The notes: generated from the letters alone by a model not told the origin. A stretch of DNA of 64,000 nucleotides from Oligoflexia bacterium (GCA_903895855.1 CAITVN010000072.1:67932-131931), one strand, 5' to 3'; positions 13,752 to 31,408 are shown, counted from the first letter of the stretch. Translations and numbers: made by a program.

Positions 13752-16205
13752 CTAATTTTCTTCAGGCTCTGGTGGATCTAGCACCGGATTCGGATCTTTT
13801 TCACCTGGCGGATGCCCCGAAGTCGGGTGAGTTGGAGTCACAGAACCGCCATTGGAGTGCGTCGAAGGAGTCACTGGCGCTTCATCTTCCCACCAATTGA
13901 CTGTGCCACTTCCCGAACCGCCGTTTGGAGGTGTCGTTCCTGTGCCACCGGTTTCTGGAGTTTCTTCTTCTGAATCATCACCGCCCGCAGCAGGTCTTGT
14001 CGGCTTGTTGTTTTGATTTTGCTGGCCTCCGCCTCCACCACCGCCGCCGGTTGTCGGCTCAGTCGTGTCACCCGTGTTTTCATCGCCTGTCGATTCACTT
14101 GGTGCAGGCCCCATTCCTAGCCAGAACAAGAATTTTGCGGTGTAGTGCGACTGAAAGAGTAAATAGTCGGCCGATTCTGCACCCAAGACAGCAGCAATAC
14201 CCAATTTTTTTGCGGCATACTTTACGACCCCTTCAGCGTAACCGACATAGCGCTTCCCGGTTTCAGTCGTCGTGAAGCCTTTGCCTTTGCCGAAAATGGC
14301 CTCGCTCATTTTGTCGAGGTTGTTGATCATGATGCGATTTCTAAATGAATACGTCGAAACGGCAACTTTGAGTTCACGCCAAACGAGCTCGTTGGTCGAC
14401 ACACTCAAACCCTGCCGATACAGTTGGTACCAAGAATCAACTTCTTGCTGACTCACCAAGAAAGCGGTTGGCAACAGAACTGGAGAACCGATCAAATCAT
14501 TTTTCAAAACTCCATGGGGCAAGTTAATGAAAAGTTCTAGCTTTTCATAGTCATCAATGAATTGAATGAGAGAGTCTTCGAGATCTTTTGCCTTAATTGA
14601 AATCTCCTTAGTCAGATTGGCTAGCTTCGCATCGATCAAATCAAGCTGGGTCTTCTTAGTATAAATTTTCGTTTTGATTTCTTCTCTAGTGACTGGACTC
14701 TCTAATTGTTTCAGCTCGCCTTTATCAATAATGATTTGAATTTTGGTTTCGTCAGCCGCAGACGTCAAAGCCTTCACTTGTCCCTGCAGAGACTTAATTG
14801 CCTTCACTTCGTTGATCACTTCGCCGTGTTTGCCACCGACACCACCCATGCCTCGCAGGCGTCCGGTGATACCCAACATCTCATTTTCAACGTAAGTCCA
14901 AATTTTCTCAGTTTTCAGCTCAGTCTTCTTGATCAGCTTTTTTAGCGCTTCATTTCTCACTTTTTCGTCGTTAGCAAGTAGACCAAGACTGGCAGTCACT
15001 TCGTCTTGTGCATCTGCTTGAATCAATCCTTCGAGTGAACGCTTTCGATCGTACATCAAAGTCTCAGGGGTCATGCCGCCGTCTGAAAATTTGACTAATG
15101 ATTCAGAGCTATCAGAATTGAGCTGACCGTAAAGCACCGGATTTCGCTTAACCGCCTCAACGTATGCCATCACTTCCAATCGAAACTGACCGTAAGAGTT
15201 GACCCCGTCCATCTGTCTCACTCGGGAGCGTATAATATTGAGATCATATTCACTATAGGGTGTCGTTCCTTTAACTCCAACCCAAGTCGTGACATCGAAC
15301 TTTGAACGCACGAGCGCTCGAAGCACACCAATCTGACCTTTTTGGCGAATGACCATTTTTTTAATAGGATTCAACTGCAGCGTATCGGGGTCGATAATGT
15401 CGTTGAGATCTCCTAGGTTTTTATCTTTCAAAGGATCTTTTAATTTGATTTTTCTAGCACCATCAGAGGTGTAAGTATCGGCAGCGGGTTCGGCACCCAC
15501 AGCCCCCGGCACTGTGCCGGTAGTCCCCTCAGCAGACAAGCTTTCAGTCGTTTCACCTGCGGTGCCTTCACCAGTAGGCGATTCTCCCGATGTGGCAGTC
15601 GGCTTATTAGCACCAGTAGGTTTATGTCCAAGAATGTCAGCCAATTCTCCGGTTTCACCGCTGGCGCTGCCCACGCCTTCTGAAACGGTTGCGACTTTAT
15701 TGACCTTAATCAAGTGAGGATTTTGACTTTTTGCTAGTGCCGACAGTTCTTTCAACCAGTTTGCATCAGCAGCAAAAGAATTCTCAAAGTAGTCGCGAAT
15801 GAATCTATCTTGTTTACTGCCAACCCCTTCTTTTTGTACTTCATCAAAACTTTTCTTGAATTCGACTGAAAATTTTTCGTCAAGCTCTCGAATGAGGTCG
15901 TAAAGTTCGCCTTTTTTTGACGAATAAACAGATTTGCGAAATTCGCCAATAAACGCCAGGTATTCGCTTTCAGAAATTTTTGGTAACGCCGTCGAAATGA
16001 AGAGTTCTGCGATTCTCTTTCCTACCGGAGTGTTTCGAATCAGGTATTGCCCTAGCTTTTGATCGAGAAGATCAGCCGCCTCAGCATTATGGTAGGGCGC
16101 CACAAGCGCCACAACCGAAACCGTGGTGAGCGTTGCCACCGTCAACGGAGCTGAACATAGGCTGATGAACACTGCTGCTAAAACTCGATTTTTTTGATTT
16201 TTCAC
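13752..16205 (-). CDS. large secreted hypothetical protein with low-complexity tails
   Basis: 817 aa, GTG start, signal-like N-terminus. The C-terminus contains a GGGGGGGG run and a Pro/Thr/Gly-rich segment. No recognised catalytic motif. Confidence 0.55.
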   Translation of the reverse strand: MKNQKNRVLAAVFISLCSAPLTVATLTTVSVVALVAPYHNAEAADLLDQKLGQYLIRNTPVGKRIAELFISTALPKISESEYLAFIGEFRKSVYSSKKGELYDLIRELDEKFSVEFKKSFDEVQKEGVGSKQDRFIRDYFENSFAADANWLKELSALAKSQNPHLIKVNKVATVSEGVGSASGETGELADILGHKPTGANKPTATSGESPTGEGTAGETTESLSAEGTTGTVPGAVGAEPAADTYTSDGARKIKLKDPLKDKNLGDLNDIIDPDTLQLNPIKKMVIRQKGQIGVLRALVRSKFDVTTWVGVKGTTPYSEYDLNIIRSRVRQMDGVNSYGQFRLEVMAYVEAVKRNPVLYGQLNSDSSESLVKFSDGGMTPETLMYDRKRSLEGLIQADAQDEVTASLGLLANDEKVRNEALKKLIKKTELKTEKIWTYVENEMLGITGRLRGMGGVGGKHGEVINEVKAIKSLQGQVKALTSAADETKIQIIIDKGELKQLESPVTREEIKTKIYTKKTQLDLIDAKLANLTKEISIKAKDLEDSLIQFIDDYEKLELFINLPHGVLKNDLIGSPVLLPTAFLVSQQEVDSWYQLYRQGLSVSTNELVWRELKVAVSTYSFRNRIMINNLDKMSEAIFGKGKGFTTTETGKRYVGYAEGVVKYAAKKLGIAAVLGAESADYLLFQSHYTAKFLFWLGMGPAPSESTGDENTGDTTEPTTGGGGGGGGQQNQNNKPTRPAAGGDDSEEETPETGGTGTTPPNGGSGSGTVNWWEDEAPVTPSTHSNGGSVTPTHPTSGHPPGEKDPNPVLDPPEPEEN

Positions 16206-16295: not shown

Positions 16296-17390
16296 TTAGC
16301 AAATTCGAGGCAACTGCTCGCCGCTCGGCATATCAAGAACCCGAGTCACCCCAATCAATCCCTCGATCAAAACCCGAGACCGCCCACCTGATTCAACAGC
16401 CCCAATTTCGCAACTTTGTTCACCCACTTCGAAGCGTTTCATCACCTGAAGGGCTCTTTCAACATCACTTTCAGGCACAAAGGCCACTAGCCTACCCTCA
16501 TTAGCCACCGACAAAACATCTAAACCCAACATCTCGCATGTGCCCCTCACCTCAGCCAAAACTGAGACCGCACTCTCGCGAATTTTGATTTCAACTCGAG
16601 CCTTTTGGGAGATCTCATTGAGTGCACTCACCAACCCACCTCGAGTCAAGTCTCTCAAACAATGTATTTGAACTCCCGCCTCAACTAACGCCAAAACCAT
16701 CGGCGATAACGGCGCACAATCACTTCTAATGGTAGTCTCAAATTGAAGTCCTGACCGCGCTGCCATGATGGCAATGCCGTGGCGGCCGAGATCACCACTA
16801 ATTAGCACACGATCTCCCACGCAAACGCTACTCGGCTCAATTTTCAGTGAATGCTCAATTACTCCTACACCAGCCGTATTGATGTACACTCCGTCGCCTT
16901 TGCCTTTTTCGACAACTTTAGTATCACCAGTAACTATTTTAACACCCGAAAGGTCTGCCGCGATTTTCATCGAGCGCACAACTTTAATCAAACTCTCTAT
17001 TGAAAATCCTTCTTCTAAAATAAACCCAGCACTCAAATACTGGGGCCGAGCGCCACTCATCGCGAGATCGTTTACCGTTCCAAAAACCGCAAGCCGACCG
17101 ATGTCTCCACCCGGAAAAAAAAGTGGGTTCACCACATAAGAATCAGTCGTAAACGCAATGCGCCCCGAAGGCATCGGTAGCTGTGCACTGTCGTGCTCAT
17201 TTGACAAAAATTCATTCGTGAACTCTTTGGCAAAGAGTTCTTGTATGAGTTTTTGCATCGTGCGACCGCCGCCGCCATGAGCCATCACGATTTTTTCTTG
17301 AGCAGAAAACCCGGTGTGAAAAGGAATGGGGCAATTGAGAAATTCAGTCATGACTCGACACTCCTTCGATAGCGATAATAAGCCGAACAC
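16296..17390 (-). CDS. hypE: hydrogenase maturation protein HypE
   Basis: 364 aa AIR-synthase-related fold. The C-terminus ends in the PRIC motif characteristic of HypE. Confidence 0.9.
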
Positions 17391-18448
17391 GCACCTTCTG
17401 ACGAAACCATCGGCGCTCCCATCGGATTCTCAGGATTACACGAAACACCAAATGAAGGGCACTGCGAAGGTTTTCTCACCCCCTGAAGAATCAAGCCACT
17501 CATGCACTGAGGATTTTCTAAGCTCGTTTCATCTCTTAAATTAAATTTCTTTTCAGCATCAAATTTTTCGTATTTTCGAGCCAGCCTAAGTCCACTTTCA
17601 GGAATGGTACCTATGCCTCTCCAATTCTTGTGAAACACTTCAAAGACTTCACCTAAGAGTTTTTGTGCGTGAAGGTTTCCCTCAGCTCTCACCGAACGCG
17701 TGTACTGATTTTCGAGGGCAAAATTTCCTGACTCTAACTGAAGCACACACATCAAGAGTCCCTGCAAAATATCAAGAGGTTCAAACCCCGTAACGACAAT
17801 CGGCACTCGGTACTTGGTCACCAATGGCTCATAGCCTGCCATACCCATCACCGTACACACATGCCCCGGAGCGAGAAACCCCTGCACTCGATTTTCAGGC
17901 GACGACAAAATCGCGTCAATTGCAGGCGGTACCAAGACCTGTGACACGAGCAATGAAAAATTCGTTAACCCAAGTTGAGCGGCGTTCATCGCAGCCATCG
18001 CATTCGCCGGGGCGGTGGTCTCGAAACCAACGGCTAGAAAAACCACTTCTCGCTCACGATTGTCTTGTGCCACTTTGACAGCATCAAGCGGAGAGTAGAC
18101 AACTCGCACATCAGCACCCTCGGCTTTTGACTTCAACAAATCGGTTGAAGTACCGGGCACCCGAAGCATGTCACCGAACGAGCACAGAATAACATTCTTA
18201 TTCAAAGCGAGGTCTATCGCCGAATCAATCACAGAAACTGGAGTCACACAGACCGGACAGCCGGGACCGTGTATGAGATTGACTTGGTTCTTTAGAAGCT
18301 CATCAATGCCATACTTAACTATTGAATGGGTCTGTCCTCCGCAGATTTCCATGATATTCCACGACCGGGTCGCAGCACGAGAAATCGCATTCACATACTC
18401 TTTGGCCAGCGAAGCATCTCGATACTCGTCAATGAATTTCAAATTCAT
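17348..18448 (-). CDS. hypD: hydrogenase maturation protein HypD
   Basis: 366 aa with conserved GPGCPVC and CGxH-type cysteine motifs. Overlaps hypE by 43 nt. Confidence 0.9.
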
Positions 18449-18720
18449 AAAGGCATACCTGCCTTTTTTTCGGCAAACTCTTCATTTTGAGATTTGAGAT
18501 AGTCAAAAACAAATTGAGCTTCAACTTCGTCAATGACCGAAAGGGCAAACCCAACGTGAATGAGCACGTAATCACCGACTCTGGCCTCGGGCACAAAAGC
18601 CAAACTCACTTCTTTGACTACGCCGCCGATACTCACCCGTCCAACGGCAGTCAACTCACTTTCATTACCCAACTCAGGAAGCGAAATTTCAATGAGCTTT
18701 GCAGGAACTGAAAGACACAT
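18445..18720 (-). CDS. hypC: hydrogenase maturation protein HypC
   Basis: 91 aa beginning MCLSVP, the HypC MC(L/I)(A/G)(I/V)P motif. Confidence 0.85.
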
Positions 18721-18751
18721 GATTAAAACCTCTTTATTCTATACTCACCAC

Positions 18752-21088
18752 TCAACCCACCGAACACCCAAATGCCCGACTGGCCGCCTGGCCAACAGAA
18801 AGGCCCCCATCATTGGGAGGCACCCGATGGTGCCAATAGGCAGCAAACCCCATTTGCTGAAGCCGATCAATAGCCAGTTCAGAAAGTACGCGATTTTGAA
18901 AGCACCCTCCCGTCAACAAGATACGGCTAACCTTTGAACGCTGAGCCATGACGCCAATCGCATGAGCGAGAGTCAGATGAAACTTCAGTGAGATTTCAGA
19001 AACATGAACCCCAAGTTCTTGATCTTTGATGACTTCCTGAATGAACGAACCCCAGTCAACTGTACCATCAGTACCGATTGACACCGAGTAGGGCCGAGGC
19101 AAATCGCCGCCGGCTAACAAAACCTGCGCAGCCAATGCCTCAATTCTCATTGCAGCTTCGCCTTCATAGCGACTCACCTGCACCACACCGAGTAGAGCAG
19201 CCACGCCGTCAAAGAGTCTACCCACACTGCTCGTTAAGGGCGAATTGATTTTTTTCTCTATCATCGTATGAATGAGCACGAGGTCGTGATCACTTAACCC
19301 GTGACCGAACCGCGAGCAAAGCGCAAGAAACCGGTCAAGATCTCCGCACGCAAGCTCTCGCATCATGCTCACGGCCGAAAGCCTCGGCTCTTTCACCGCC
19401 TTTTCGCCCCCAGGAAGCGCAAACTGCCGAAGACTGCCCACGTGTTCGAATCCTTGTGAATGAACGACCAAGAACTCTCCACCCCAAATCGAACCGTCGA
19501 GCCCGTAGCCACTTCCATCCCAAGCGACACCGAAAACAGCCTCGGCCTTCTCACGAGCCAGACCAAGCGCTAGTTCATTATCTACCAAACACGATAAAAC
19601 ATGAGCGTGGTGATGTTGAACCAAAACCCGAGTTAGCCCCACCCATTCTCGCGATTCGAGAATTTGGCTCGTGAAATATTCCGGGTGGCGATCACAGGCA
19701 AACTGAACTCGGTCAGCACCAAAATTTTCTACAGCTTTCGATAGGCCCGTTTCATAATCATCACGAGCGTTGACCGAATCGAGATTACCAAAGTGGGGCA
19801 TTAAATTTATATATCTATTATTTAATAATGATAAGGTGTTTTTTTCCTGGCCACCCAAACCAATGATGAAGTTTCCCGGAACCTTCAACCCCAATTCTAA
19901 CTTCAAGGGGGCATAACCACGCCCAGCCCGAAAAACGGTTTCTTGACCCGATATTTCGCGCACAACCGAATCGTCGACACGAGAAACGATTTTGCGATCA
20001 TGAACTAAAAACCCATCAGCAACACCAAAGAGAACACGCAAGGCTTCAGATTTTTCAAAACAAATCGGCTCGTCAGCAATGTTTGCGCTCGTCACCACTA
20101 ATGGCCTACCAAACGCTTTCATGATCAGGTGGTGAAGCGGCGTATAGGGCAATAAAACGCCCAAAGTAGAAAGCCCTGGTGCGACAGTATCAGCTATAAA
20201 GCGATACTCACCCACTCGGTTCAACAGAACAATCGGAGCCCCCACGCTCGCGAGCATTCGCGACTCAACATCAGACAATGCACAGAGTGCTCGCACTTCA
20301 CTCACACTCGCAATCATGACTGCAAACGGTTTACTCTCTCGCTTCTTTCGTTCTCGAAGTCGCTGCACGGTCTTGTTGGCCCCAGCATCACAAACTAAAT
20401 GAAATCCACCAATACCTTGAATGGCTAGAATTTGGCCCGCATTCAAGGCATCAACCACACCTAGCAGGGCTTGTTCGCGAGTTGAGACCACACCACCGCC
20501 ACCATCTATCAACGTCAATGACGGCCCGCACTCAGGGCAAGCGTTGGGTTCGGCATGAAAACGCCGATCACTCGGATCATCGTACTCAGCTTGGCAGCTG
20601 TCGCACATTTTGAACTCACCCATACTGGTATTCGCCCGATCGTAAGGCAGCGCCTTTATGATGCTATACCTCGGACCACACTCAGTACAATTCGTGAACG
20701 GATACTGAAAACGCCGATTTTTGGGATCAAAAATCTCTAAACAGCATTTCCCACAGGTCGCCAAATCGGGCAAAATTTCTGCATCAGATTCACCGTCGGG
20801 CACCGCAACAACACTCGAAGTCAGAATGCTGAACTCGTGATCATTTTGAAGTTCGATTTGCCAGCTCTCATTTTTTCGCAAACTCGCATTTCGCGGAAGC
20901 TCACTACTCAAGCGCGAACTGAATGCATCGACTGAAGTCAGTAGCCCCTCAACTTCAATTTGGACACCTTTTTTCGTATTTTTGACAAACCCAGAGAGGC
21001 TTAACTCGCACGCTAGCCGATAGACAAAGGGCCGAAACCCAACCCCCTGAACTCGCCCCTGCAGGTTAAATACTTTTCGAATCTTCAT
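18752..21088 (-). CDS. hypF: carbamoyltransferase HypF
   Basis: 778 aa with an acylphosphatase-like N-terminus, two Cys-rich zinc-finger repeats, and YrdC-like and Kae1-like domains. Confidence 0.9.
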   Translation of the reverse strand: MKIRKVFNLQGRVQGVGFRPFVYRLACELSLSGFVKNTKKGVQIEVEGLLTSVDAFSSRLSSELPRNASLRKNESWQIELQNDHEFSILTSSVVAVPDGESDAEILPDLATCGKCCLEIFDPKNRRFQYPFTNCTECGPRYSIIKALPYDRANTSMGEFKMCDSCQAEYDDPSDRRFHAEPNACPECGPSLTLIDGGGGVVSTREQALLGVVDALNAGQILAIQGIGGFHLVCDAGANKTVQRLRERKKRESKPFAVMIASVSEVRALCALSDVESRMLASVGAPIVLLNRVGEYRFIADTVAPGLSTLGVLLPYTPLHHLIMKAFGRPLVVTSANIADEPICFEKSEALRVLFGVADGFLVHDRKIVSRVDDSVVREISGQETVFRAGRGYAPLKLELGLKVPGNFIIGLGGQEKNTLSLLNNRYINLMPHFGNLDSVNARDDYETGLSKAVENFGADRVQFACDRHPEYFTSQILESREWVGLTRVLVQHHHAHVLSCLVDNELALGLAREKAEAVFGVAWDGSGYGLDGSIWGGEFLVVHSQGFEHVGSLRQFALPGGEKAVKEPRLSAVSMMRELACGDLDRFLALCSRFGHGLSDHDLVLIHTMIEKKINSPLTSSVGRLFDGVAALLGVVQVSRYEGEAAMRIEALAAQVLLAGGDLPRPYSVSIGTDGTVDWGSFIQEVIKDQELGVHVSEISLKFHLTLAHAIGVMAQRSKVSRILLTGGCFQNRVLSELAIDRLQQMGFAAYWHHRVPPNDGGLSVGQAASRAFGCSVG

Positions 21089-21093
21089 CTCAT

Positions 21094-21825
21094 CTAATTC
21101 GCAACCGAACCCAGTCGAACGTAGTCAAGCCACGCATCTAAGCCCTGGCCAGTCTTCGCACTCAAACACAAAATCGGAGCGGCTGCGTTCACACCGCGTA
21201 TGTGCTGAACACAGGTCGCAAAACTGAACTCTAGATACTGAACCAGGTCGATCTTAGTGATGACAATGAGATCAGCCTCATGAAAGAGTAACGGGTACTT
21301 CGATGGTTTGTCTTCACCCTCGGTTGTCGATAGTATGGCAACTTTTCGGCTTTCTCCCAAATCAAACGACGCTGGACACACCAAATTACCCACATTCTCA
21401 ATGATCAGGTGACTAAACTCTGGCTTCACAAATTCACCCAACTCGCCTCGAATCATCGCAGCGTCTAAATGGCACGAACTTGCTGTATTCAATTGCTTGA
21501 CCTTCGCGCCAGCGGCCTCAAGCCTCTTAGCATCAAAGTCTCGTTCTTGATCTCCAACCAGAATGCCAAGGTTGATCGAGTCCTTCAAGCGAGTACTCGT
21601 TTTTTCTAAGAGCAGCGTTTTTCCAGAGCCCGGAGCACTCATCAAGTTGAACACCAACAGCTTGTGATCTAAAAACCATTGGCGATTGGTTTCTGCAATT
21701 TTGTTATTCTTATCTAAGATCGACGTCTTAACTTCAATTTTTCGAAATTTTAAATTTTCTTTTTCTCTTCGAATCTCTTCAAATGCGACTTTATTGGCTT
21801 GTTGGCAACCGCAGTCTATACACAT
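21094..21825 (-). CDS. hypB: hydrogenase nickel-incorporation GTPase HypB
   Basis: N-terminal MCIDCGCQ metal-binding motif and GSGKT P-loop. Confidence 0.9.
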   Translation of the reverse strand: MCIDCGCQQANKVAFEEIRREKENLKFRKIEVKTSILDKNNKIAETNRQWFLDHKLLVFNLMSAPGSGKTLLLEKTSTRLKDSINLGILVGDQERDFDAKRLEAAGAKVKQLNTASSCHLDAAMIRGELGEFVKPEFSHLIIENVGNLVCPASFDLGESRKVAILSTTEGEDKPSKYPLLFHEADLIVITKIDLVQYLEFSFATCVQHIRGVNAAAPILCLSAKTGQGLDAWLDYVRLGSVAN

Positions 21826-21854
21826 AAATCAACCTTTCTCAGCGTTCAACTCTG

Positions 21855-22100
21855 TCACAGAACATCTAAGTCAATGATTCGAAAGTCTCGACCCAGTTTC
21901 ACAAAATCTAAAATCAATTGAGCTTCTTCTAAGATCGACCCTTTGCAAACTTCTGGAAAGCAAAATTCAAAACAGTGCCGATCGACACCGCTCAATTCTC
22001 CGAGCTCTAAATGAATTTTGACCACCCGCTCAAATTTTTCTCGCACCGCAATTTCGGCAACCTGTTCGACAAGCGCCGTTGCTAATGAAAGCTCATGCAT
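21855..22100 (-). CDS. hypA: HypA-like nickel insertion protein, truncated (no zinc-finger domain)
   Basis: 81 aa with an MHE N-terminus (Ni site) and a HypA-like helical N-domain. The ORF stops 29 nt before hypB, and no CxxC...CxxC zinc motif is present. Confidence 0.7.
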   Translation of the reverse strand: MHELSLATALVEQVAEIAVREKFERVVKIHLELGELSGVDRHCFEFCFPEVCKGSILEEAQLILDFVKLGRDFRIIDLDVL

Positions 22101-22566
22101 CGAACACCTTCGACACTTCGTTGAGTGCAGCCGCTAAGTTCAATCTTGCTGCTGGCGTCAAACCTTCTTCTAGATTCCATTCGTAACCCAAAACTGCCAA
22201 TAGAAAGGTTCGAGGCATTCGTCCATATAACTTCTGACACAAATTCAACACAGCACCAGGGCTCATCGAGTGGCTGGTAAACGCGAATTCGTCTTCGGGG
22301 GTCACCTCTCGAAACTGGTATGGCCAACTAACCCCTTTTTCTTGGCTAGCGTCAACAAAGACCACGATCTCATACTCAGAAATAAGCAGGGCGTCTTCAA
22401 CGTTGAGTTGATAATTCGAATCAAACGCCGCCCAAGCAGGTAAACTCTTCTTCTGAAGCTGCTCAATCACTTCGACCCCCAACGCATCGTCTCGACGCCC
22501 CGGGTTGCCGATTCCGTAAAATAAGACACGGTCACTAGGCTTTCGAGCCAATACTTCGAGGTTCAA
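22093..22566 (-). CDS. hoxW: hydrogenase maturation endopeptidase (HoxW/HybD family)
   Basis: 157 aa with VLFYGIGNPGRRDDALG, the HycI/HybD protease signature. Confidence 0.8.
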   Translation of the reverse strand: MNLEVLARKPSDRVLFYGIGNPGRRDDALGVEVIEQLQKKSLPAWAAFDSNYQLNVEDALLISEYEIVVFVDASQEKGVSWPYQFREVTPEDEFAFTSHSMSPGAVLNLCQKLYGRMPRTFLLAVLGYEWNLEEGLTPAARLNLAAALNEVSKVFDA

Positions 22567-24038
22567 GTGCCTGCTCCGTCAAAGTCACCCACATTTTTAA
22601 TTCTGCGGTCAAGTTGATTGCCGTCCAAATCCTGCAAGACCAGCTCTAAAGGCATCTGCCCAACTGCATGAGTCGCACAACTGAGACAAGGGTCGTAGGC
22701 ACGGATAGCAACTTCGACTTGGTTCAGCATTCCCTCAGGAATTTCCTTATGACCGTTGATCACCTTTTGTGCAACCCAAGTCACCCCGCGATTCATGGCC
22801 TCATTATTACTCGTCGTTGAAACAATCAAATTACATAGGGTGATCTGGTCATTTTGGTCGACACGGTAATGGTGAAATAAAGTGCCTCGCGGGGCCTCAA
22901 GAACCCCAACCCCTTCGCCCGACCTCTCACCGGTTTTGACCAGTTCTCCGTGAATGATATCGGGATCTTTCAAAAGCTCGCGAATCATCTCAATGGCATG
23001 CAACGCTTCAATGAGCCTTGCCCAGTGCATGTGCATCGACATGCCATTGGGTTTACCTTGAGTATAGGCTTTGTACTGCTCAAATTCTTTTTGTGCTAAC
23101 GGAGTCGGAATGAAGTCACAAGTGTTGAGCCGCGCTAGTGGGCCCACTCGATACCAACCCTTTTCAGAGCCCAGCGAAATAATGTGTGGAAACTTCATGT
23201 AAGTCCAACTGCGAACTTCTTCTGTGATGTAGTCGGAATAGTTTTGATAATCGACTTGATCAAAAATCTTTGCGCCGTCGCTATCAACGGCTCGCAAAAC
23301 GCCGTGATACAAATCAAGAGCCCCATCTTTTCGTACTAAGCTCAAGTAATTTGATGAAAATGCGGCAAAACCATCAATGAATTCGTGGTTCTTCTTGTGA
23401 TAACCTTTGAACAATTCAAGACCCTCTTGAATCCAGTCAACCATCAGGTCAACGTTAAATTCTGGAGTCCCCACCAACAACTGGTCGCGCTCTTCGGGCG
23501 TCAGTCTCTTATTCACTCCCCCCGGAATGGCTCCGGTGCCATGAATTTTCTTTCCAGCCGTCAGGTGAATCACAACTTGGCCAAATTTTCGCATCAAAAC
23601 AGCTTTTTTAGCAATCTCGGGAAATGCACCAATCACGCCGATGATATTTCGCTTGAGAGGATCTGAATTGACACCGAACAAGAGATCGGGCGAAGCCAAA
23701 TGAAAAAAATGTAAAACATGAGACTGAAAAAACTGACCGTAATGCATGAGTCGGCGCATTTTGTCAGCCGTAGCAGTTAACTCACCCGATGAGGTGCCCA
23801 CTATCACATCCATTGCTTTTGAGGCACACAACTGATGACTGACCGGACAAATGCCACAGAGCCTTTGCACAAGCACTGGCGCTTCCCAAAAGGGACGCCC
23901 CTGCACAAAGCGCTCAAACCCTCGAAATTCAACGATATGAAGCCTACTTTGAACGACCTGATTATTGTCATCAAGCTTGATCGTGACCTTGCCATGCCCT
24001 TCGACTCGAGTAATCGGTTCTATGGTTATTTTTCTCAT
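22563..24038 (-). CDS. hoxH: [NiFe]-hydrogenase large subunit, NAD-reducing/bidirectional type (HoxH)
   Basis: N-terminal RVEGHG and RLCGICPVSH motifs. C-terminal DPCLSCATH is followed by a cleavable extension. 491 aa is typical of group 3 enzymes. Confidence 0.9.
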   Translation of the reverse strand: MRKITIEPITRVEGHGKVTIKLDDNNQVVQSRLHIVEFRGFERFVQGRPFWEAPVLVQRLCGICPVSHQLCASKAMDVIVGTSSGELTATADKMRRLMHYGQFFQSHVLHFFHLASPDLLFGVNSDPLKRNIIGVIGAFPEIAKKAVLMRKFGQVVIHLTAGKKIHGTGAIPGGVNKRLTPEERDQLLVGTPEFNVDLMVDWIQEGLELFKGYHKKNHEFIDGFAAFSSNYLSLVRKDGALDLYHGVLRAVDSDGAKIFDQVDYQNYSDYITEEVRSWTYMKFPHIISLGSEKGWYRVGPLARLNTCDFIPTPLAQKEFEQYKAYTQGKPNGMSMHMHWARLIEALHAIEMIRELLKDPDIIHGELVKTGERSGEGVGVLEAPRGTLFHHYRVDQNDQITLCNLIVSTTSNNEAMNRGVTWVAQKVINGHKEIPEGMLNQVEVAIRAYDPCLSCATHAVGQMPLELVLQDLDGNQLDRRIKNVGDFDGAGT

Positions 24039-24040
24039 TT

Positions 24041-24595
24041 TTAGTCGTACCTCACTAAATCAAAATTGAGTTCATCGAGAGATTTTCCGGCGATCAAAAG
24101 ATTCAAGGCTTCCCACAGGAGATCAGCTCTTGGTGGGCATCCAGGTAAGTACCCATCGATCTTCACAATCTCATGACAGGGGTAGACTCGATCGAGTAAC
24201 ATCGGAATTTCTTCATCGTTCGGTATTTGAGAACTTTTGCTGTCTACAGTCGGGCCAGTTAAGAAAGCCTCTTTAAATAATTCAGCTACCGGAATGCCAT
24301 TTCGAAGAGCGGGTAAACCACCAGTAATGGCACATTGGCCGACCGACACTAAAATTTTGCAGTGTTTTCTAAAGTCTCTCAACACCCTGACATTTTCGCT
24401 ATTGCAGCAACCGCCTTCAATCAGGCCAATGTCACACATTTGAGTGAACTCTTTAATATCGTCGATCGGTGATTTGTCGAAAGTGACCAACTCTACTAGA
24501 TCTAAGATTCGCTCATCAATATCGAGAAGTGACATATGGCATCCGAAACAGCCCGCAAGTGAAGTGGTCGCCAGCACTAATTTTTTCTTTTTCAT
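24041..24595 (-). CDS. hoxY: [NiFe]-hydrogenase small subunit (HoxY)
   Basis: 184 aa with Cys motifs for the proximal Fe-S cluster (GCFGCH, GCP). Short group 3 small subunit. Confidence 0.85.
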   Translation of the reverse strand: MKKKKLVLATTSLAGCFGCHMSLLDIDERILDLVELVTFDKSPIDDIKEFTQMCDIGLIEGGCCNSENVRVLRDFRKHCKILVSVGQCAITGGLPALRNGIPVAELFKEAFLTGPTVDSKSSQIPNDEEIPMLLDRVYPCHEIVKIDGYLPGCPPRADLLWEALNLLIAGKSLDELNFDLVRYD

Positions 24596-25290
24596 AGCTG
24601 TTTACCATCCTTCTCATGTTTGCGATCAAACCGCCTCTGACCAATGGGCACCCGAAAGCCAACACGTTTTTGAATCAATGCGCCTACCGGGCAAATTTCC
24701 ATCGCTTTTTTTGCCGTCGCTTCTGAGACCGCCTCCGGATCAGTGACATCCACGGTGATTCGAACATCACTTCCCCGGCGCATGAATCCGAAAATTTCAT
24801 GCCCATCTTTCGCACGAACCCCGCGAACACAGCGCAGGCACTGAATGCAACGCTTATGCTCGATAAATAAGTGCGCCATTCGCGCTTCAACCTTCTGAAC
24901 CGGAAACAAAAACGGATATCGAGGCACCACAATTCGATAGTGATGGGCCAACTCTTGCAATTCGCAATTACCGCTCTTTTCACAGCTAGGACACATGTGA
25001 TTGCCCTCGACAATGAGCATTTCTACTAGAGCTCGTCTAAGATCAGTGAGCTCAGCGGTTTCATTCTCTACGACCATGCCGTTGACCGCCGGACTCGTAC
25101 AACCAGGCACAAATCGCCCTCCAACCTTTACCGTACAAACGCGGCAAGTTCCGGCAGGACTCAAACTTCGAAAATCACAAAGGGTCGGAATAAATAGTCC
25201 ATTCTCGCGCGCGGCCTGAACAATGCTCTGGCCCTCTTTGGCAACACACTCTTTTCCGTCAATCGTTAGACTAATTTGGCCTTGTTCCAT
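24592..25290 (-). CDS. hoxU: diaphorase Fe-S subunit HoxU (NuoG N-terminal-like)
   Basis: 2Fe-2S ferredoxin N-terminus plus 4Fe-4S cysteine clusters (CIQCLRC). Confidence 0.85.
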   Translation of the reverse strand: MEQGQISLTIDGKECVAKEGQSIVQAARENGLFIPTLCDFRSLSPAGTCRVCTVKVGGRFVPGCTSPAVNGMVVENETAELTDLRRALVEMLIVEGNHMCPSCEKSGNCELQELAHHYRIVVPRYPFLFPVQKVEARMAHLFIEHKRCIQCLRCVRGVRAKDGHEIFGFMRRGSDVRITVDVTDPEAVSEATAKKAMEICPVGALIQKRVGFRVPIGQRRFDRKHEKDGKQL

Positions 25291-27142
25291 CTACCACCTC
25301 ACTATCAATTTCAAGATTGGGTTTTCGGTTAGCAGCTACGCAAGAATCAATCACAGCAAACTTCAAATCAAACTGCGACAAGAAGTCGACATCTGCTCGA
25401 ACTTTCTTTTGATAAATCTCAGTGAAATTTCGAATAGTACTCAACAACGGGTGCGGTGAGCTCTGACCCAATCCGCAGCGCGAGGTGGCTTTAATCGTTT
25501 TGCCGAGCTGCTTTATATTTTCAATATCAGCGGCGGTTCCGTTTCCAACCATGATTTTCTCTAGTGCCTTAATTAGAAGGGTATTGCCCGTTCGGCAGGG
25601 AACACAGAAACCACAGCTTTCATCTTCAAAAAACTCCATGTAGTTGTGAACAATCGACAGAAGATCGCGTTTTTGACCAAAAATAGTGACGGCGCCACCA
25701 GTCGATAGATCAGAAAAACAAAGTTTTCGATCGAATTCATTCTGCGAAATACACTGGCCTGATGGCCCCCCCACCTGAACCGCTAAAACATCTTTCGCGC
25801 CACAAATTGCCAAGAGCTCGCGAATCGACATTCCCCACTCCACTTCGTAAATCCCCGGTCGTTCACAATCACCCGCGACACTGAGAACTTTCACGCCACT
25901 CGATGCTGGGGTGCCCATTTTTCTAAACCAAGCAGCACCGTTTAAAATGATTTTTGCGGCGGCTCCGAAAGTCTCAACATTATTGACGATGGTTGGCCTT
26001 CGAAGGTATCCCGAAGTCACCGGATACGGCGGTCGATTTCTCGGCTGACCTCGCTTACCCTCAGCCGACTCAATGAGCGCCGACTCTTCGCCACAGATGT
26101 ATGCACCAGCTCCAACTTTAATCTGAATATCAAAACTAAACCGAGTGCCTAATATTCGGCGGCCCAACAAATGTTCTTGGCGCATCTTTGTCAGAACATT
26201 CTCTAAATAATCCTTCAAATAGGCGTACTCGCCCCTCAAATACAAAATTCCGTGTTTGGCTTCGATAGCATAGCCAGCGACTGCCATTCCCTCAAAAATC
26301 AATTCAGGCATTTCGGTAAGCAGCACTCGATCTTTAAACGTACCGGGTTCACCTTCATCAGCATTGCACATGACATAGCGAGTTTCAGACTCGGCAGCCC
26401 GACAAAAACCCCATTTTTGGCCCGTATCAAAGCCAGCACCGCCGCGCCCTCTCAAACCAGACTGTTTGACTTCATCGATCACTTCGAGCGCTCCGTGATT
26501 CATCGCAGCTTTTAATGCGGTACCTGGTTCAAAATCGGTAAAGAACACTGGCCCTCGAACTCGAATGTGATTAGACACTTCAGCATGAATTTCTTCTAGT
26601 GCATTTTTACCATCGCCAAGCGACTCAACGAGATCTCGCACGGGCCGATTGGCTTTCATACCAGCGACTATTTTTGTGACTTTCGCGTCAGTCATTCGGG
26701 TGAAAACTACATCATTAATTAGAATCGCAGGCTCTTGATCGCACATGCCAATACAAGAAGTTGTTCTCAAACCGATCTGCCGATCACTCGTCGTTTCTCC
26801 GAATGAGATGCCCACCTCTCTTTCGAATGCCTTGACTATCGCATGAGAACCCGCCATCTCGGCAGTCGCACTAGTGTTCACATAAACTGTGTAATTACCC
26901 CGATGAGTGCGCGAAAGAAAATGATAGAATGTAGCAACTCCCTCAACATGAACGCGCGAGAGATCCATTTCTTCGGCGATGAGAGTGATTACTTGCGGCG
27001 ACAAGTGCCGCCATCTACTCTGACATTCGCGCAAAACAGCCAAAAGTTGTGTTCTATCACCGCGAACCTGATCAATGATTTCGATGATGACATTTCGAGT
27101 TTCGTTCAAATCAAGAATCGTTCTCTCGTTCATGCAGAACAT
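25271..27142 (-). CDS. hoxF: diaphorase flavoprotein HoxF (fused NuoE-like and NuoF-like)
   Basis: 623 aa with an N-terminal thioredoxin-like 2Fe-2S domain and a C-terminal NADH/FMN-binding domain (GAGAYICGEESAL) with a 4Fe-4S site. Confidence 0.9.
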   Translation of the reverse strand: MFCMNERTILDLNETRNVIIEIIDQVRGDRTQLLAVLRECQSRWRHLSPQVITLIAEEMDLSRVHVEGVATFYHFLSRTHRGNYTVYVNTSATAEMAGSHAIVKAFEREVGISFGETTSDRQIGLRTTSCIGMCDQEPAILINDVVFTRMTDAKVTKIVAGMKANRPVRDLVESLGDGKNALEEIHAEVSNHIRVRGPVFFTDFEPGTALKAAMNHGALEVIDEVKQSGLRGRGGAGFDTGQKWGFCRAAESETRYVMCNADEGEPGTFKDRVLLTEMPELIFEGMAVAGYAIEAKHGILYLRGEYAYLKDYLENVLTKMRQEHLLGRRILGTRFSFDIQIKVGAGAYICGEESALIESAEGKRGQPRNRPPYPVTSGYLRRPTIVNNVETFGAAAKIILNGAAWFRKMGTPASSGVKVLSVAGDCERPGIYEVEWGMSIRELLAICGAKDVLAVQVGGPSGQCISQNEFDRKLCFSDLSTGGAVTIFGQKRDLLSIVHNYMEFFEDESCGFCVPCRTGNTLLIKALEKIMVGNGTAADIENIKQLGKTIKATSRCGLGQSSPHPLLSTIRNFTEIYQKKVRADVDFLSQFDLKFAVIDSCVAANRKPNLEIDSEVVDGTRPN

Positions 27143-27186
27143 TTAACCACAAAATTGCGTACGGCTCTATTATTTTGAGAAATTAA

Positions 27187-28323
27187 TTACCGACGCCAAC
27201 AGAATTTTGCTCCGTTCAAGTAATCGATCACATAATCTAAGCGACAGAGATGGCGCAATCTGTGTTTGAAATATGGCAATACCATCCTGATCACAGCAGG
27301 TGTGTGTTTCTTGATATCGTGAAAAAGAACGATACCGCGGTTTTGCGATTTTGCCAATTCTAACACTCTTGTCGCGACTGATTGAGGATCAGGGTCTGCC
27401 CAATCCAGCGAGTCAATGTTCCAATAAATGTGAACCATTCGATTGTCGGCAATTCTGTCTCGTATGACGGGATCTTCATCTCCTTCTCCATAAGGCAAGC
27501 GAAACAATCCGACACGCGCTTGAATGATCTCTTCTAGTTTATTTTTTGCCTGCGTAATCTCTAACTCAAGATCAGCACCAGCCTCCATCAAATTGGCATG
27601 CGACCAAGAGTGACAAGCAACCAGGTGCCCCTCTGACAACTCAGCCGAAACTTTATCAGGCAGCGCGACGCTCGACGAAACCACTTGAAAAAAGGTAGTT
27701 TTTTGGCCATTTTCTTTCATGATTGAGATAATCGCCTCGGTGGTTTCGCCAAAATCAGGTCCGTCATCAAAAGTGAAAGCAAAGGTTCTTCGCGGAAATT
27801 CTTCTCCCGACAGATTTCCATTTTCACCGGCTGAGGGATAGACAGTGAGCTCTGACCTCACCGACAGACGGTCAATTGACTGCCTGGCTACCGCCCTAGG
27901 TAACACCCGATCAAAAGCCAACCAACGTGCGTCGAGTTGAAATCTGTATAAATAGTCACTCCAAGACAACAAATGAGACGTTTCTGTCACCTGTTTTTTT
28001 TTCTTAATGCCTTGCGCCGGCAAAACTCGCGATAGGTGTTGTTCGTGAAGCAATGAACGCAAGAACTGCAATCTTCGATACTCAACCACTTGCCAAATAC
28101 TCTCGCTCGGCTCTAACCGCAAAAACCGAAGATCAGCGAGCTCTAACTGCTCTTTCACTTGCTCAAGGGTCCGATCCCGAAGCCCAGCACTCTCGCTCAC
28201 AACCGAAAGTACCGGTAAGCGCTCTGCTGAAACTTGCTGAATAGTGAAATAGGCAACCAGGCAACAACCGAAAAAAAAAGCTCTCATCACAAATTTGAAA
28301 CCCGCACAATCGCTAGCAGTCAT
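27187..28323 (-). CDS. polysaccharide deacetylase (CE4, NodB homology)
   Basis: TFDDGP and HSWSH motifs with an N-terminal signal/TM segment. 44 nt upstream of hoxF on the same strand. Confidence 0.75.
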   Translation of the reverse strand: MTASDCAGFKFVMRAFFFGCCLVAYFTIQQVSAERLPVLSVVSESAGLRDRTLEQVKEQLELADLRFLRLEPSESIWQVVEYRRLQFLRSLLHEQHLSRVLPAQGIKKKKQVTETSHLLSWSDYLYRFQLDARWLAFDRVLPRAVARQSIDRLSVRSELTVYPSAGENGNLSGEEFPRRTFAFTFDDGPDFGETTEAIISIMKENGQKTTFFQVVSSSVALPDKVSAELSEGHLVACHSWSHANLMEAGADLELEITQAKNKLEEIIQARVGLFRLPYGEGDEDPVIRDRIADNRMVHIYWNIDSLDWADPDPQSVATRVLELAKSQNRGIVLFHDIKKHTPAVIRMVLPYFKHRLRHLCRLDYVIDYLNGAKFCWRR

Positions 28324-28346
28324 TTCTACCCCCTTTGCCCACAGCT

Positions 28347-29432
28347 CTATCGATGACTCTGACCTGAACGTGAACTGAACTCGTCTCGCAAAAATTCGAA
28401 CCCATCAAGTCCATCACTGGTCTTAAAATATCTTGCGAAATCTGAAACCATGAACGCATGCCCGTAGGTCTGCGGCACCCAGGCCGCAAAACGGTCTGAG
28501 CGATCAAGAGACAATTGAAAAATTCCATCAGGCCCATAAACTAATTTTTCGTGTTCGACCGGCGATATGGTTCCAAACATCGACGACATCACAAAATCAC
28601 GGCTACCTTGTAAAATCGAGAATCGCCAACCCGGGTAATGCTTTGCCAACTCAACCACTGGCCTGGCCATCAAGCCCGAATGTTCACCCAGGCCTGCGCC
28701 GATTTCATTGAGTCCGGCCTTGAAATCGAGCTGCATTTGATCAGAGAACTTATCCCAAAAATGGTCACCAAAATGTAGTCCAGGTGAGTCGGCGATGAGA
28801 AATTTTTGAACATTCCGAGCTCGCGCCCCCAACTGCTCAGTTAGCCATCGATCAAATTCACCTAAGTTGACCAACGCTCCAATGGCTCCTGCAGAAGAGC
28901 CCGCCAAAACTACACGGCGAACACGTGACATTTCAAACCACTTCTCTTGCGCCCACTGAGCAATCGCCAATCGAAAATTATTTCTTCCTACATGGTGTAC
29001 CTGACCAAAGGCATAGTTCGCCACATGGGTACCGATATGAACATCACCCGTACAATACGGGAAATAAACGAGAGTCGCTTCGGCTAACGGATTGAGTTCT
29101 GGGTCTTCAGAGAGAAACCCTCCAGGCTCAATCGGAAACGGCAACTGGTGAATCCAGGCCATGGGCGTCGGTCCAAAGCAAGTAGTCGAGTTCCAGCACG
29201 CCCCTCCCCCCATTAAATCAACGGCAATCAGATCTGACCTACCTGGACGAACAAAAACGCTATAAGGCGTTCCATCTCCACAAACTGCACCATCGATTTC
29301 ATGTTTTTCCCAATTGGCAAATGAGTTTGAGATTGTACAAAAAAAGACAAGACTACCCACCAGACCACCCAGCAGGCGCGCGTGCGCCCACTCGGCAAAG
29401 CCGTATTTTTTTATCATTAGTATTCCCCTCAC
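28347..29432 (-). CDS. pectin-acetylesterase/Notum-like alpha/beta hydrolase (CE13-like)
   Basis: GGGACW, YCTGD and GSSAG motifs with a signal-like N-terminus. The start is GTG at 29432, or alternatively ATG at 29417. Confidence 0.6.
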   Translation of the reverse strand: MRGILMIKKYGFAEWAHARLLGGLVGSLVFFCTISNSFANWEKHEIDGAVCGDGTPYSVFVRPGRSDLIAVDLMGGGACWNSTTCFGPTPMAWIHQLPFPIEPGGFLSEDPELNPLAEATLVYFPYCTGDVHIGTHVANYAFGQVHHVGRNNFRLAIAQWAQEKWFEMSRVRRVVLAGSSAGAIGALVNLGEFDRWLTEQLGARARNVQKFLIADSPGLHFGDHFWDKFSDQMQLDFKAGLNEIGAGLGEHSGLMARPVVELAKHYPGWRFSILQGSRDFVMSSMFGTISPVEHEKLVYGPDGIFQLSLDRSDRFAAWVPQTYGHAFMVSDFARYFKTSDGLDGFEFLRDEFSSRSGQSHR

Positions 29433-29546
29433 CTAAAAGTGTAGACGAAAAATGGGAGGGTGCAAGAATGGTCAGCGATTAAACAAAATAAATTTATCTA
29501 TATATGTCGTTTACTGGACAACGCAAAAGTCAGTTAGGTGCAGATG

Positions 29547-29590
29547 CAAAAAATAAAAAAGCCCCCACTCTCATCCTTGAGAGCAGAGGC
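29547..29590 (-). terminator. intrinsic terminator after the REC-less sigma54 activator gene
   Basis: On the minus strand, GCCTCTGCTCTCAAGGATGAGAGTGGGGGC forms a hairpin and is followed by TTTTTTATTTTTT. Confidence 0.7.
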
Positions 29591-29632
29591 TTAATCGGTT
29601 CAAACTCAACAAACGAGACTACTTACGTGCGA

Positions 29633-30691
29633 CTAGCTGTCGATCGTAGGCATCGAGCCCATCAAATCGTGTTCTCGTCGCGGAGCCGGCTTAATCATTC
29701 CACGCTTGCGAAGCTTTTCGACCAGAGTCGTGCGATTCATGTGCAGAAGTTCGCTTGCGCGATTTTTATTATTGCTAGTACGAGCCAGGGCTTGATCAAT
29801 TAAATGATTTTCAAAAGCATCAACAATTGCCTTCAAATCAAGACCCAAATTAGGAAGAACCATTCTCGGAAATTCCCAACCCGAGATGGCGCCAGTGGCC
29901 TGCGGCTGTTCTTCGACGAATTTTTGAAAAATCCTATGAGGAAGATCACCCAAATCAACAGTACCTTGGCCTTTTAGGATCACTAGGCGCTCCATCAAGT
30001 TTTCAAGTTCCCGCACATTGCCTGGCCAATCATAAGCCATCAAAGCATCAAGAATTTTTCCGACCGGAGCCTCAACTGTGTGCCCAGTGAGATCGTTAAA
30101 TTGTTTTACGAAATGATTGATTAAAATAGAGACGTCAGTTCTACGCTCGCGAAGTGACGGAACGCGAATCGGTATCACATTCAAGCGATAATAGAGGTCT
30201 TCGCGAAATTCTTTCTTGCTGGCTGCGGCCTCAAGATCACGATTGGTAGCCGCGATAATTCGGACATCGACTTCCATCGTCTTCGATGAGCCAACTGGCT
30301 CAAATTGTCTGGTCTGAAGTACGCGCAACAATTTCGATTGCAGTTGAAGTGGCAGTTCGCCAACTTCATCTAAGAACAAAGTTCCACCGTGAGCCATCTC
30401 GAAACGACCGATTCGAGTTTGCATAGCACCAGTGAAAGCTCCTCTCATGTGGCCGAAAAGTTCGGCTTCTAAGAGTTCTGCCGGAATCGCGGCACAATTG
30501 ACGACGACAAGCGGCTGCGAAGCACGATTTGAATTTTCGTGAATGGCTCTTGCCACGAGTTCCTTGCCAGTTCCACTTTCTCCTGTTATCAGAACTGTGC
30601 TGTCAGTCTGTGCGACTTTTTCGATTGTGTTAATGACGTTTTGGATTGCTTGACTTTCCCCGACTAGAGGCGACTTGAACGTGAGCATCAA
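29633..30691 (-). CDS. sigma-54-dependent transcriptional activator (AAA+ plus HTH, no receiver domain)
   Basis: [14 protein letters not shown] and a C-terminal HTH, with no N-terminal sensory domain. It is followed by its own intrinsic terminator. Confidence 0.85.
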
Positions 30692-30850: not shown

Positions 30851-31408
30851 CTAGAAGGCATAGCCAAAACTAAATCCCGCCCAGAGCGACAAATTACTGC
30901 TGATCATTGCGTAAGCGGTCGCCCGAAACAGAAAACCGGCATCGCCGCGGTCTTCAAAACCTAATCCGGCCGTCGGAATAACCGCTCCCGACGAAAATGT
31001 GACGTTGCCAACTTTTGGGCTCGTGCCCACGACCGAATTCGCATTTGCCAACAAAGTAATTCCGCCAGTAGCAAAAACTGAAGACTCATCTTTGGCAAAA
31101 TAATAATTAAAATACGCAGGAATTAAAAGTGCTGTTGAGCCCAAACTATTCGAAACAGTCCCGAACGAAAAGCCAGCAGCCGTCACATCACTCATCGCTC
31201 GATCATAAAAAATACCATAGAGAAGGCCTCGGCCCAAAATTTCGCCACCCACCACATTGGGATTACTGAGTCGCGTTTGCTCTCTCGCGACAGCAACCGT
31301 TGAAAACAAAGTAAATGCGGCCAAAATCACCAAAAACAAGCGCAAAACCGATGTTTTTTTCATATTCGTTTTCCTCACTGAAAGAGCCAAAGTACCGATC
31401 TTGTCCAT
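30851..31408 (-). CDS. small outer-membrane beta-barrel protein (OmpW/OmpA-like fold guess)
   Basis: 185 aa with a signal peptide, alternating hydrophobic beta-strand pattern and a C-terminal aromatic residue (...FGYAF). Confidence 0.5.
   Translation of the reverse strand: MDKIGTLALSVRKTNMKKTSVLRLFLVILAAFTLFSTVAVAREQTRLSNPNVVGGEILGRGLLYGIFYDRAMSDVTAAGFSFGTVSNSLGSTALLIPAYFNYYFAKDESSVFATGGITLLANANSVVGTSPKVGNVTFSSGAVIPTAGLGFEDRGDAGFLFRATAYAMISSNLSLWAGFSFGYAF

Follow-up and report, generated by a model that had tools for sequence, protein, structure and literature searches.

Why should the genes for two apparently exported esterases stand directly in front of a complete set of hydrogenase genes, and does the arrangement reflect a shared function? 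The question is raised by a 64,000-nt stretch of DNA from an uncultured Oligoflexia bacterium (GCA_903895855.1, CAITVN010000072.1:67932-131931), hereafter the window, in whose coordinates all positions are given unless another locus is named. In the block from 30691 down to 16296, 14 consecutive open reading frames (ORFs) are found on the minus strand, in the order sigma-54 activator without a receiver domain (REC-less), terminator, PAE-family esterase, CE4 deacetylase, hoxFUYHW and hypABFCDE. The 14 gene identities and their coordinates had been proposed in an earlier note made from the sequence alone, and were borne out by profile searches against Pfam and NCBIfam. The same note had suggested that co-transcription of the block couples de-acetylation of polysaccharides or peptidoglycan to H2 metabolism. 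The reading that we favor instead, with a probability of roughly 0.7, is that the block consists of two unrelated functional units, which have become adjacent and co-directional by chance in one uncultured Bdellovibrionota lineage. The host is assigned to the Bdellovibrionota, as an uncultured member, because of its closest hoxF loci, the distribution of homologs of its PAE-family protein, and its Tad-type and LysM genes.

The evidence that carries this reading comes from gene order in relatives. A scan for HoxF in species-representative genomes gave 80 loci, most of them with up to 10 kb of upstream sequence, and when the window proteins were compared with these loci by tblastn, a homolog of the PAE or the CE4 protein was found at 0 of the 80, even at E<1. 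The proposed coupling of the esterases to hydrogen metabolism is thus not backed by the comparison. The closest HoxF proteins are those of the Bdellovibrionota metagenome-assembled genome (MAG) FG-2 (77% identity) and the Oligoflexia bin Kiruna3_bin-3974 (locus L002, 76%), followed by those of Pseudobdellovibrionaceae and Bdellovibrionales MAGs. L002 is also similar to the window in HoxH (86%), MetK (83%) and the activator (77%); locus L001 breaks off inside hoxU. The gene that precedes hoxF varies among the closest loci, being a GNAT gene in L002, a Na+/H+ antiporter in L003, a rhodanese in L021, a Rex-like regulator in L032 and a divergent CN-hydrolase in L009, and a divergent or unannotated ORF in others. 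The regulator in L032 (8636-9310 of that locus), directly upstream of a Bdellovibrionales hoxF, has the domains Put_DNA-bind_N and CoA_binding of a redox-sensing protein.

In two more distant loci, L006 and L008 (64% HoxF identity), the order hoxFUYHW-hypABFCDE is exactly that of the window, and the conserved unit therefore starts at hoxF; it is probably mobile. The order of hoxFUYHW is likewise the same in the hoxFUYH clusters of the Bdellovibrionota MAGs FG-1 and FG-2 and in L002, but esterase genes are not found upstream there. In L002 (7370-16932 of that locus) the arrangement is GNAT-hoxFUYHW-bolA-grx-metK-act, with no hyp genes behind hoxW. The hox genes and the metK-activator pair thus adjoin in both L002 and the window, in opposite relative order.

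Seen from the other side of the junction, the picture is the same. The six contexts of the closest PAE homologs that were inspected (42-47% identity) contain e.g. proteases, transporters, kinases and a formate-dehydrogenase-like gene, and neither a CE4 nor a hox gene was found next to the PAE homolog in any of the six. The formate-dehydrogenase-like gene, for a molybdopterin/Fe-S oxidoreductase, lies beside a divergently oriented PAE homolog in Bdellovibrionota FG-1 (L084, 5259-9074), a vicinity that is probably coincidental. The CE4 protein comes close to being an orphan: apart from the protein itself, the best match has 36% identity along 65% of the length, and others match in the catalytic domain only. 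Judged from these gene orders, the PAE-CE4-hoxF junction is specific to this lineage, i.e. an idiosyncrasy of a single one, and the esterase genes look like lineage-specific neighbors rather than a part of the hydrogenase system.

The hydrogenase had been called unexpected in a predatory lineage, a view that did not last. The genes hoxFUYHW are found in at least eight related Bdellovibrionota, Oligoflexia and Pseudobdellovibrionaceae MAGs (L001-L004, L009, L021, L032 and L038), and hoxFUYH has been published for Bdellovibrionota FG-1 and FG-2 (class 'Bdellonasia'), where it was read as an NAD+-reducing hydrogenase (PMC13200544). A group 3d hydrogenase is already known in the Bdellovibrionota and is ordinary for the phylum, to which the window would add one more complete, apparently functional example with its full maturation set. 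Bdellovibrionota have long been regarded as strictly aerobic; the example fits recent reports of low-oxygen members, and to our knowledge almost nothing is known of the energy metabolism of anaerobic or microaerophilic members.

Several features place the enzyme. HoxF is a fusion of a NuoE-like and a NuoF-like part in a single chain, as had been claimed together with the lack of a separate HoxE, and three Pfam domains in the one protein confirm this. Its best solved relative is 5XF9_A (399 bits, residues 32-594), and its FMN, NADH and 4Fe-4S motifs are intact (RGRGGAGF231, GAGAYICGEE344 and CGFCVPC510). The extra C-terminal ferredoxin domain of the bifurcating type was not found in HoxF by Pfam or by a motif check. 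The NuoE-like module (residues 1-165) retains only C130 and C134 of the usual four-cysteine [2Fe-2S] motif and probably has no bound cluster. HoxU has its best NCBIfam match in NF005745 HoxU, with 177.6 bits under a curated cutoff of 333, and the short HoxY aligns with only the first 169 of 286 positions of the VhuG model. HoxH has the Ni-Fe ligand motifs (RVEGH11, CGIC61 and DPCLSCATH449), the last followed by a tail of 34 residues of the type that is cut off by a dedicated protease. The candidate protease, HoxW, has no Pfam match and is recognized by its NCBIfam model; its gene stands directly after hoxH in most of the hoxF loci.

The best solved relative of HoxH is 5XF9_D from the NAD-reducing soluble hydrogenase (SH) of Hydrogenophilus thermoluteolus (517 bits), followed by 7T2R_D (485 bits), MvhA (405 bits) and the F420-reducing and sulfhydrogenase enzymes of groups 3a and 3b (about 95-110 bits), with group 1 and 2 enzymes far below 5XF9_D. 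An identical HoxH in a public protein collection bears the Pfam tag PF27537 HoxH. The expected membership of group 3 is thus upheld by the sequence comparisons, and an intact soluble hydrogenase of group 3d, of the Hydrogenophilus/Cupriavidus SH type, is supported, the placement being a ranking of match scores to solved enzymes rather than a HydDB classification or a tree. For this type, an absent HoxE and a fused HoxF are the normal state. The SH of H. thermoluteolus (5XF9) and that of Cupriavidus necator share with the window the four-subunit plan and the fused HoxF, as well as a HoxU of about 230 aa, a HoxY of about 185 aa, a HoxH with a cleavable tail and hoxW behind hoxH, at moderate sequence identity only. 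Unlike in these systems, neither hoxI nor a regulatory gene of the HoxA or HoxBC type was seen in the window, hypABFCDE stands directly behind hoxW, and HypA has no zinc finger. The hosts also differ, as the SH hosts are Knallgas proteobacteria and the present one is a putative predatory member of the Bdellovibrionota.

As the first of the two units (27142 down to 16296), the hoxFUYHW-hypABFCDE cassette would make a cytoplasmic NAD(H)-linked [NiFe]-hydrogenase. HoxFU is predicted to exchange electrons with NAD(H) through FMN and Fe-S clusters and HoxYH to interconvert H2 and protons, at an active site that would be built by HoxW and the Hyp proteins. In a predator or heterotroph living at low oxygen, such an enzyme could balance NADH/NAD+ by H2 evolution or could use H2 as an extra reductant; either direction is conceivable in vivo.

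The second unit (27187-29417) is the esterase pair. The PAE protein exceeds the Pfam cutoff for PF03283 (54.7 bits against 26.6), although only over profile positions 17-176 of 355, and its nucleophile motif GSSAG at 173 (Ser175) is aligned with that of Notum, its sole solved relative. Across 25 homologs S175, D274, H320 and four cysteines are invariant, and D274 and H320 would complete a Ser-Asp-His triad. The likeness to pectin acetylesterase and Notum (PF03283, CAZy CE13) consists in this above-cutoff match, the GxSxG motif and the conserved Asp and His; unlike them, the protein falls in a bacterial clade in which no characterized member was found. Pectin is an unlikely substrate. Homologs of the PAE protein are concentrated in the Bdellovibrionota, including Halobacteriovorax, Bacteriovorax and Bdellovibrio.

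The CE4 protein consists of a signal-like N-terminus, an all-helical region of about 140 residues and a catalytic domain at about 175-370. All five CE4 motifs, including the Asp-His-His metal triad, are complete (TFDDG184, HSWSH238, RLPY275, DSLDW304 and VLFHD332), and their columns are invariant in the alignment. In the AF2 model, the catalytic domain has a predicted local distance difference test (pLDDT) score above 90, while the N-terminal part of about 170 residues is helical at 40-66. A NodB fold is indicated by the Foldseek match of the catalytic domain to 4L1G (E 8e-14, template modeling (TM) score to target 0.85). By fold the protein is closest to Bc1960 and PdaC (4L1G and 6H8L, TM to target 0.80-0.86) and by sequence to SpPgdA (2C1G, 5e-20), all three of them peptidoglycan deacetylases; the third-best sequence match is Bd3279 (5JP6). 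Acetylxylan and chitin enzymes of CE4 score nearly as high as the peptidoglycan deacetylases. With Streptococcus pneumoniae PgdA and the Bacillus enzymes Bc1960 and PdaC the five motifs are shared, while the accessory domains differ.

Bd3279 and Bd0468 are deacetylases that act on N-acetylglucosamine in the prey peptidoglycan of Bdellovibrio bacteriovorus (PMC4876506). The CE4 protein resembles Bd3279 in its apparent secretion, in length (378 vs 383 aa) and in its layout, with an extra helical N-terminal region and a catalytic domain that occupies the second half of the chain. The alignment, however, is confined to the catalytic domain (26% identity over 207 columns), the Foldseek rank of Bd3279 is 20, and the N-terminal region, with its low-confidence model, has no detectable similarity to that of Bd3279. 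Since the match is limited to the catalytic domain, we did not retain the idea of an ortholog of Bd3279 with the same 'gating' N-terminal domain; the helical N-terminal part, whose model is too poor to rely on, may or may not resemble the cap domain of Bd3279.

Both esterases have hydrophobic, signal-like N-terminal segments, as read by eye, and both look catalytically intact and exported. They are most plausibly cell-wall-modifying enzymes of a predation type. As a pair of a Ser-Asp-His esterase and a zinc-type deacetylase, they would act on cell-wall glycan, of the prey or of the cell itself, by taking off O- and N-linked acetyl groups, in the manner of Bd0468 and Bd3279.

The two units would be joined, if at all, by transcription. 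That the block is compact was confirmed, with gaps of at most 44 nt, several overlaps and no convincing terminator inside it, where only weak sites at chance level occur. In total, 24 terminator-like sites were found in the region against 18.8 +/- 4.1 in shuffled sequences, which is not above chance, and over the 16 kb scanned only two are strong, one behind the activator gene and one behind metK. The former, at 29592-29549, is real, as had been proposed. A single long transcript of the block is thus physically possible. Its promoter would most likely lie in the AT-rich region at the block head, where a sigma-70 consensus scan gave no passing match and promoter-like counts were at chance level. 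The hox genes could be transcribed either by read-through that begins ahead of the PAE gene or from a promoter within the 3' portion of the CE4 gene. Read-through is possible because no terminator stands between the two units, and if it occurs, the hydrogenase genes might be transcribed partly or wholly from the roughly 130 nt upstream of the PAE gene. Under the reading of two unrelated units, this would follow from the order of the genes and not be the sign of a shared pathway.

The same compactness can also be taken as the mark of a true functional operon, in which esterases and hydrogenase are co-regulated and needed in the same phase of the life cycle; wall de-acetylation could e.g. be switched on together with an NADH-venting or H2-using hydrogenase during anoxic attack on prey or growth in it. 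The genes are co-directional with no convincing terminator from 29417 to 16296, the only sizeable non-coding stretch is the one upstream of the PAE gene, and the gene order is identical in all contigs that encode an identical CE4 or HoxF protein, so that the arrangement is stable within the species. On the other hand, the junction is kept at none of the hoxF and PAE loci compared, in L006 and L008 a hox-hyp cassette of identical internal order occurs by itself, and read-through co-transcription by itself is no proof of coupling. We know of no biochemical link from periplasmic hydrolysis of acetyl esters and amides to a cytoplasmic NAD-linked hydrogenase. A functional operon is accordingly unlikely in our estimation. 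Should the neighborhood prove functional, predatory remodeling of the cell wall would be tied to the hydrogen and redox metabolism of anaerobic or microaerophilic members of the Bdellovibrionota.

A number of observations nevertheless weigh against two wholly independent units. The 44-nt gap between the CE4 gene and hoxF has no hairpin, terminator or recognizable promoter, and the Shine-Dalgarno sequence of hoxF is weak. In relatives, 180-300 nt of non-coding DNA precede hoxF, and a leader of about 60 nt that is conserved in the two closest of them, L001 and L002, is missing in the window, according to an alignment by eye. Because of the short, promoter-less gap, the weak ribosome binding site and the missing leader, hoxF may depend on transcription from upstream. 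The nearest relatives are only 76-77% identical in HoxF, which makes the comparison one at the family level and not at the strain level, and the operon fusion may be functional in this lineage alone. Furthermore, the export of the esterases is predicted and their substrates are suggested by family resemblance only, and for HoxH the electron-bifurcating NiFe enzyme 7T2R_D comes close behind 5XF9_D (485 vs 517 bits). The boldest version of a functional link, which we regard as distinctly unlikely, is that the hydrogenase genes have lost the promoter and leader that once were theirs, have ended up behind those of two exported cell-wall de-acetylases, and are expressed in a transcript of the predation or attack phase. 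Such a host would be the first predatory bacterium to tie redox venting or H2 use to modification of the prey wall.

The leader itself lies at about 2490-2560 in L001 and about 8070-8140 in L002, contains GATAAGAGTCAGGTGTCTTTTTGTGT and GAGGAGTAT, and could be a promoter or an RNA element. By eye, no motif was found that is common to the regions upstream of hoxF in the window and in the relatives. For the Rex operator (TTGTGAA-N4-TTCACAA, up to three mismatches) there were 8 matches against 5.6 expected, none of them at the block head.

The absence of both esterase genes from the hoxF loci of relatives would also be expected if the pair had been acquired horizontally not long ago, and had landed as a passenger between the activator and an existing hox operon. 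The near-orphan status of the CE4 protein, whose best partial relatives include Acidobacteriota (Geothrix) proteins, speaks for this. The sequence itself does not: the esterase genes, with GC contents of 0.465 and 0.489, GC at third codon positions (GC3) of 0.459 and 0.454 and synonymous-codon likelihoods of -1.165 and -1.160, are in the mid-range of 47 window ORFs, and they look compositionally native, like their neighbors. The pair is not flanked by direct or inverted repeats, no tRNA or integrase is near it, and an Rfam scan of the whole window gave no matches. PAE homologs are, moreover, common across the Bdellovibrionota, which makes this a gene typical of the phylum. Since the neighborhood in L002 is arranged otherwise, with hox upstream of metK-act, it offers no 'empty site' for comparison, and the differing orders mean that a local rearrangement, and not a simple insertion, separates the two genomes. 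We consider a recent insertion quite improbable. The earlier note had held that its coupling would be refuted if the esterase genes were absent from this position in close relatives and clearly recently inserted; the absence was found at the relatives' hoxF loci, whereas the native composition and the lack of repeats speak against the insertion.

A regulatory tie could also be provided by the activator at the head of the block, in the way that HoxA controls hydrogenase operons in Cupriavidus. Its gene is immediately upstream and co-directional, and an activator homolog (77% identity) lies within 3 kb of hoxFUYHW in L002. The protein is REC-less, as had been noted, since the AAA+ domain (Sigma54_activat) begins at residue 9 with no receiver or sensory domain before it, and it has the GAFTGA motif at residue 84 and a C-terminal Fis-type helix-turn-helix (HTH). 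With the search pattern TGGCAC-N5-TTGCW, in which GG and GC were fixed (i.e. GG-N10-GC) and up to three mismatches were allowed, no sigma-54 promoter was found upstream of the PAE, CE4 or hoxF genes, and nothing relevant was found upstream of hoxF in 13 relatives, with no such promoter in those from the Bdellovibrionota. Because of this lack of a sigma-54 promoter, and because of the strong terminator of its own behind the activator gene, the activator is unlikely to control the block; its gene stands outside the transcription unit that follows. In L002, it stands downstream of hox and is tied to metK, and the best sigma-54-like sites nearby precede metK and a 185-aa ORF, not the block. Control of the esterase and hydrogenase genes by this protein is very improbable in view of these findings. 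The sites in question, each with two mismatches, are TGGTTCTCACTTTGCT at 33016-33031 (-), about 80 nt upstream of metK, and TGGCAGTGGATCTGCT at 31482-31497 (-), about 75 nt ahead of the 185-aa ORF (30851-31408 (-), no Pfam match) that is located upstream of the activator gene. Both are possible targets of the 29633-30691 activator.

The features of the block are collected in the table below. The start of the PAE gene is likelier to be the ATG at 29417 (356 aa), which is preceded by AGGTGAGGGG, and public assemblies of this genome agree with it. In these assemblies, hoxF starts at the ATG at 27133 (620 aa) and hypE encodes 351 aa from a start at about 17351.

Table. Features of the block at 16296-30691, in the order of transcription, with the junctions between neighboring genes.
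Feature	Position	Strand	Description
Activator gene	29633..30691	-	REC-less (PspF-like) sigma-54 enhancer-binding protein, 352 aa; Sigma54_activat (1.3e-76), AAA_lid_14, HTH_8
Terminator of activator gene	29549..29592	-	Intrinsic; 15-bp stem with 7 GC pairs, loop of 4, then TTTTTATTTTT
Intergenic region	29418..29548	-	AT-rich, about 130 nt; sole sizeable non-coding stretch at the block head
PAE gene	28347..29417 (ORF to 29432)	-	PAE-family (CE13/Notum-type) alpha/beta serine esterase, 356 aa; PF03283
PAE/CE4 junction			23-nt gap
CE4 gene	27187..28323	-	CE4 (NodB-fold) metal-dependent deacetylase, 378 aa; PF01522
CE4/hoxF junction	27143..27186	-	44-nt gap
hoxF	25271..27142	-	NADH/FMN-binding diaphorase subunit; 2Fe-2S_thioredx, Complex1_51K and NADH_4Fe-4S in one protein
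hoxF/hoxU junction			20-nt overlap
hoxU	24592..25290	-	Fe-S diaphorase subunit of NuoG N-terminal type; Fer2_4, NADH-G_4Fe-4S_3, Fer4_Nqo3
hoxU/hoxY junction			4-nt overlap
hoxY	24041..24595	-	Short small subunit, 184 aa; Oxidored_q6 alone
hoxY/hoxH junction			2-nt gap
hoxH	22563..24038	-	[NiFe] large subunit, 491 aa
hoxH/hoxW junction			4-nt overlap
hoxW	22093..22566	-	Large-subunit C-terminal endopeptidase; TIGR00072, 61.3 bits (cutoff 47.45)
hoxW/hypA junction			8-nt overlap
hypA	21855..22100	-	Short HypA, 81 aa; profile positions 1-68 of 112 only
hypA/hypB junction			29-nt gap
hypB	21094..21825	-	Nickel GTPase with N-terminal CxxCGC site; TIGR00073, 260.9 bits
hypB/hypF junction			5-nt gap
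hypF	18752..21088	-	Carbamoyltransferase; five Pfam domains, two zinc fingers
hypF/hypC junction			31-nt gap
hypC	18445..18720	-	PF01455; N-terminal MC
hypC/hypD junction			4-nt overlap
hypD	17348..18448	-	PF01924, 507 bits; GPGCPVC61
hypD/hypE junction			Overlap
hypE	16296..17390	-	AIRS and AIRS_C; C-terminal PRIC; likely start at about 17351 (351 aa)

Among the maturation genes, hypB has the motifs CIDCGC2 and GSGKT66 in its product, and the most unusual member is the short hypA. Its product keeps the MHE nickel motif at residues 1-3, with H2 and E3 invariant in the alignment, as well as the last beta-strand. The whole zinc finger is missing: there is no CxxC, and a 36-column gap stands in the alignment in place of CxxC...CxxC. 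The length is unchanged in a strain-level variant (P0230, 95% identity). In a scan that covered 1.84 billion representative proteins, at least 13 further clusters (at 50% identity) of HypA-like proteins of 80-87 aa were found, which can be aligned over their full length and are devoid of a CxxC zinc-finger motif. Three of these clusters were looked up in their genomes, and all three lie within hyp clusters, directly upstream of hypB. On this evidence, HypA proteins of about this small size form a recurrent subfamily, of which the 81-aa protein is a member, with loci also in L092-L096. In Helicobacter pylori, the zinc site of HypA is required for hydrogenase activity (PMC5557546), and a natural subfamily without zinc site therefore merits attention. 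No description of such a subfamily was found in the literature, in a search whose matches were swamped by botanical papers. The zinc-finger-less HypA may be of more interest to researchers of hydrogenase maturation than the adjacency of esterases and hydrogenase.

Some other parts of the window deserve mention. Just downstream of hypE, an ORF of 817 aa (13752-16205 (-)) has no Pfam match, and a promoter-like TTGACT-N17-TAAATC is located within the 90-nt gap between the two. Genes for a Tad/type II-like secretin, a T2SSE ATPase and a LysM-domain protein are found at 33373-35927 (+) and 40161-42026 (+), which fits the context of a predatory lineage. There were no magnetosome genes among the window ORFs scanned, though the nearest relatives are magnetotactic. 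A third sigma-54 activator, of the NtrC type with a receiver domain and with an adjacent histidine kinase, is located at 51178-54821, and a second REC-less one (328 aa) at 6509-7495 (-). The latter follows the gene of a 959-aa TPR protein (7508-10387 (-)), and about 15 nt upstream of the GTG start of this gene is a perfect sigma-54 promoter, TGGCACTAACGTTGCT, at 10402-10417 (-).

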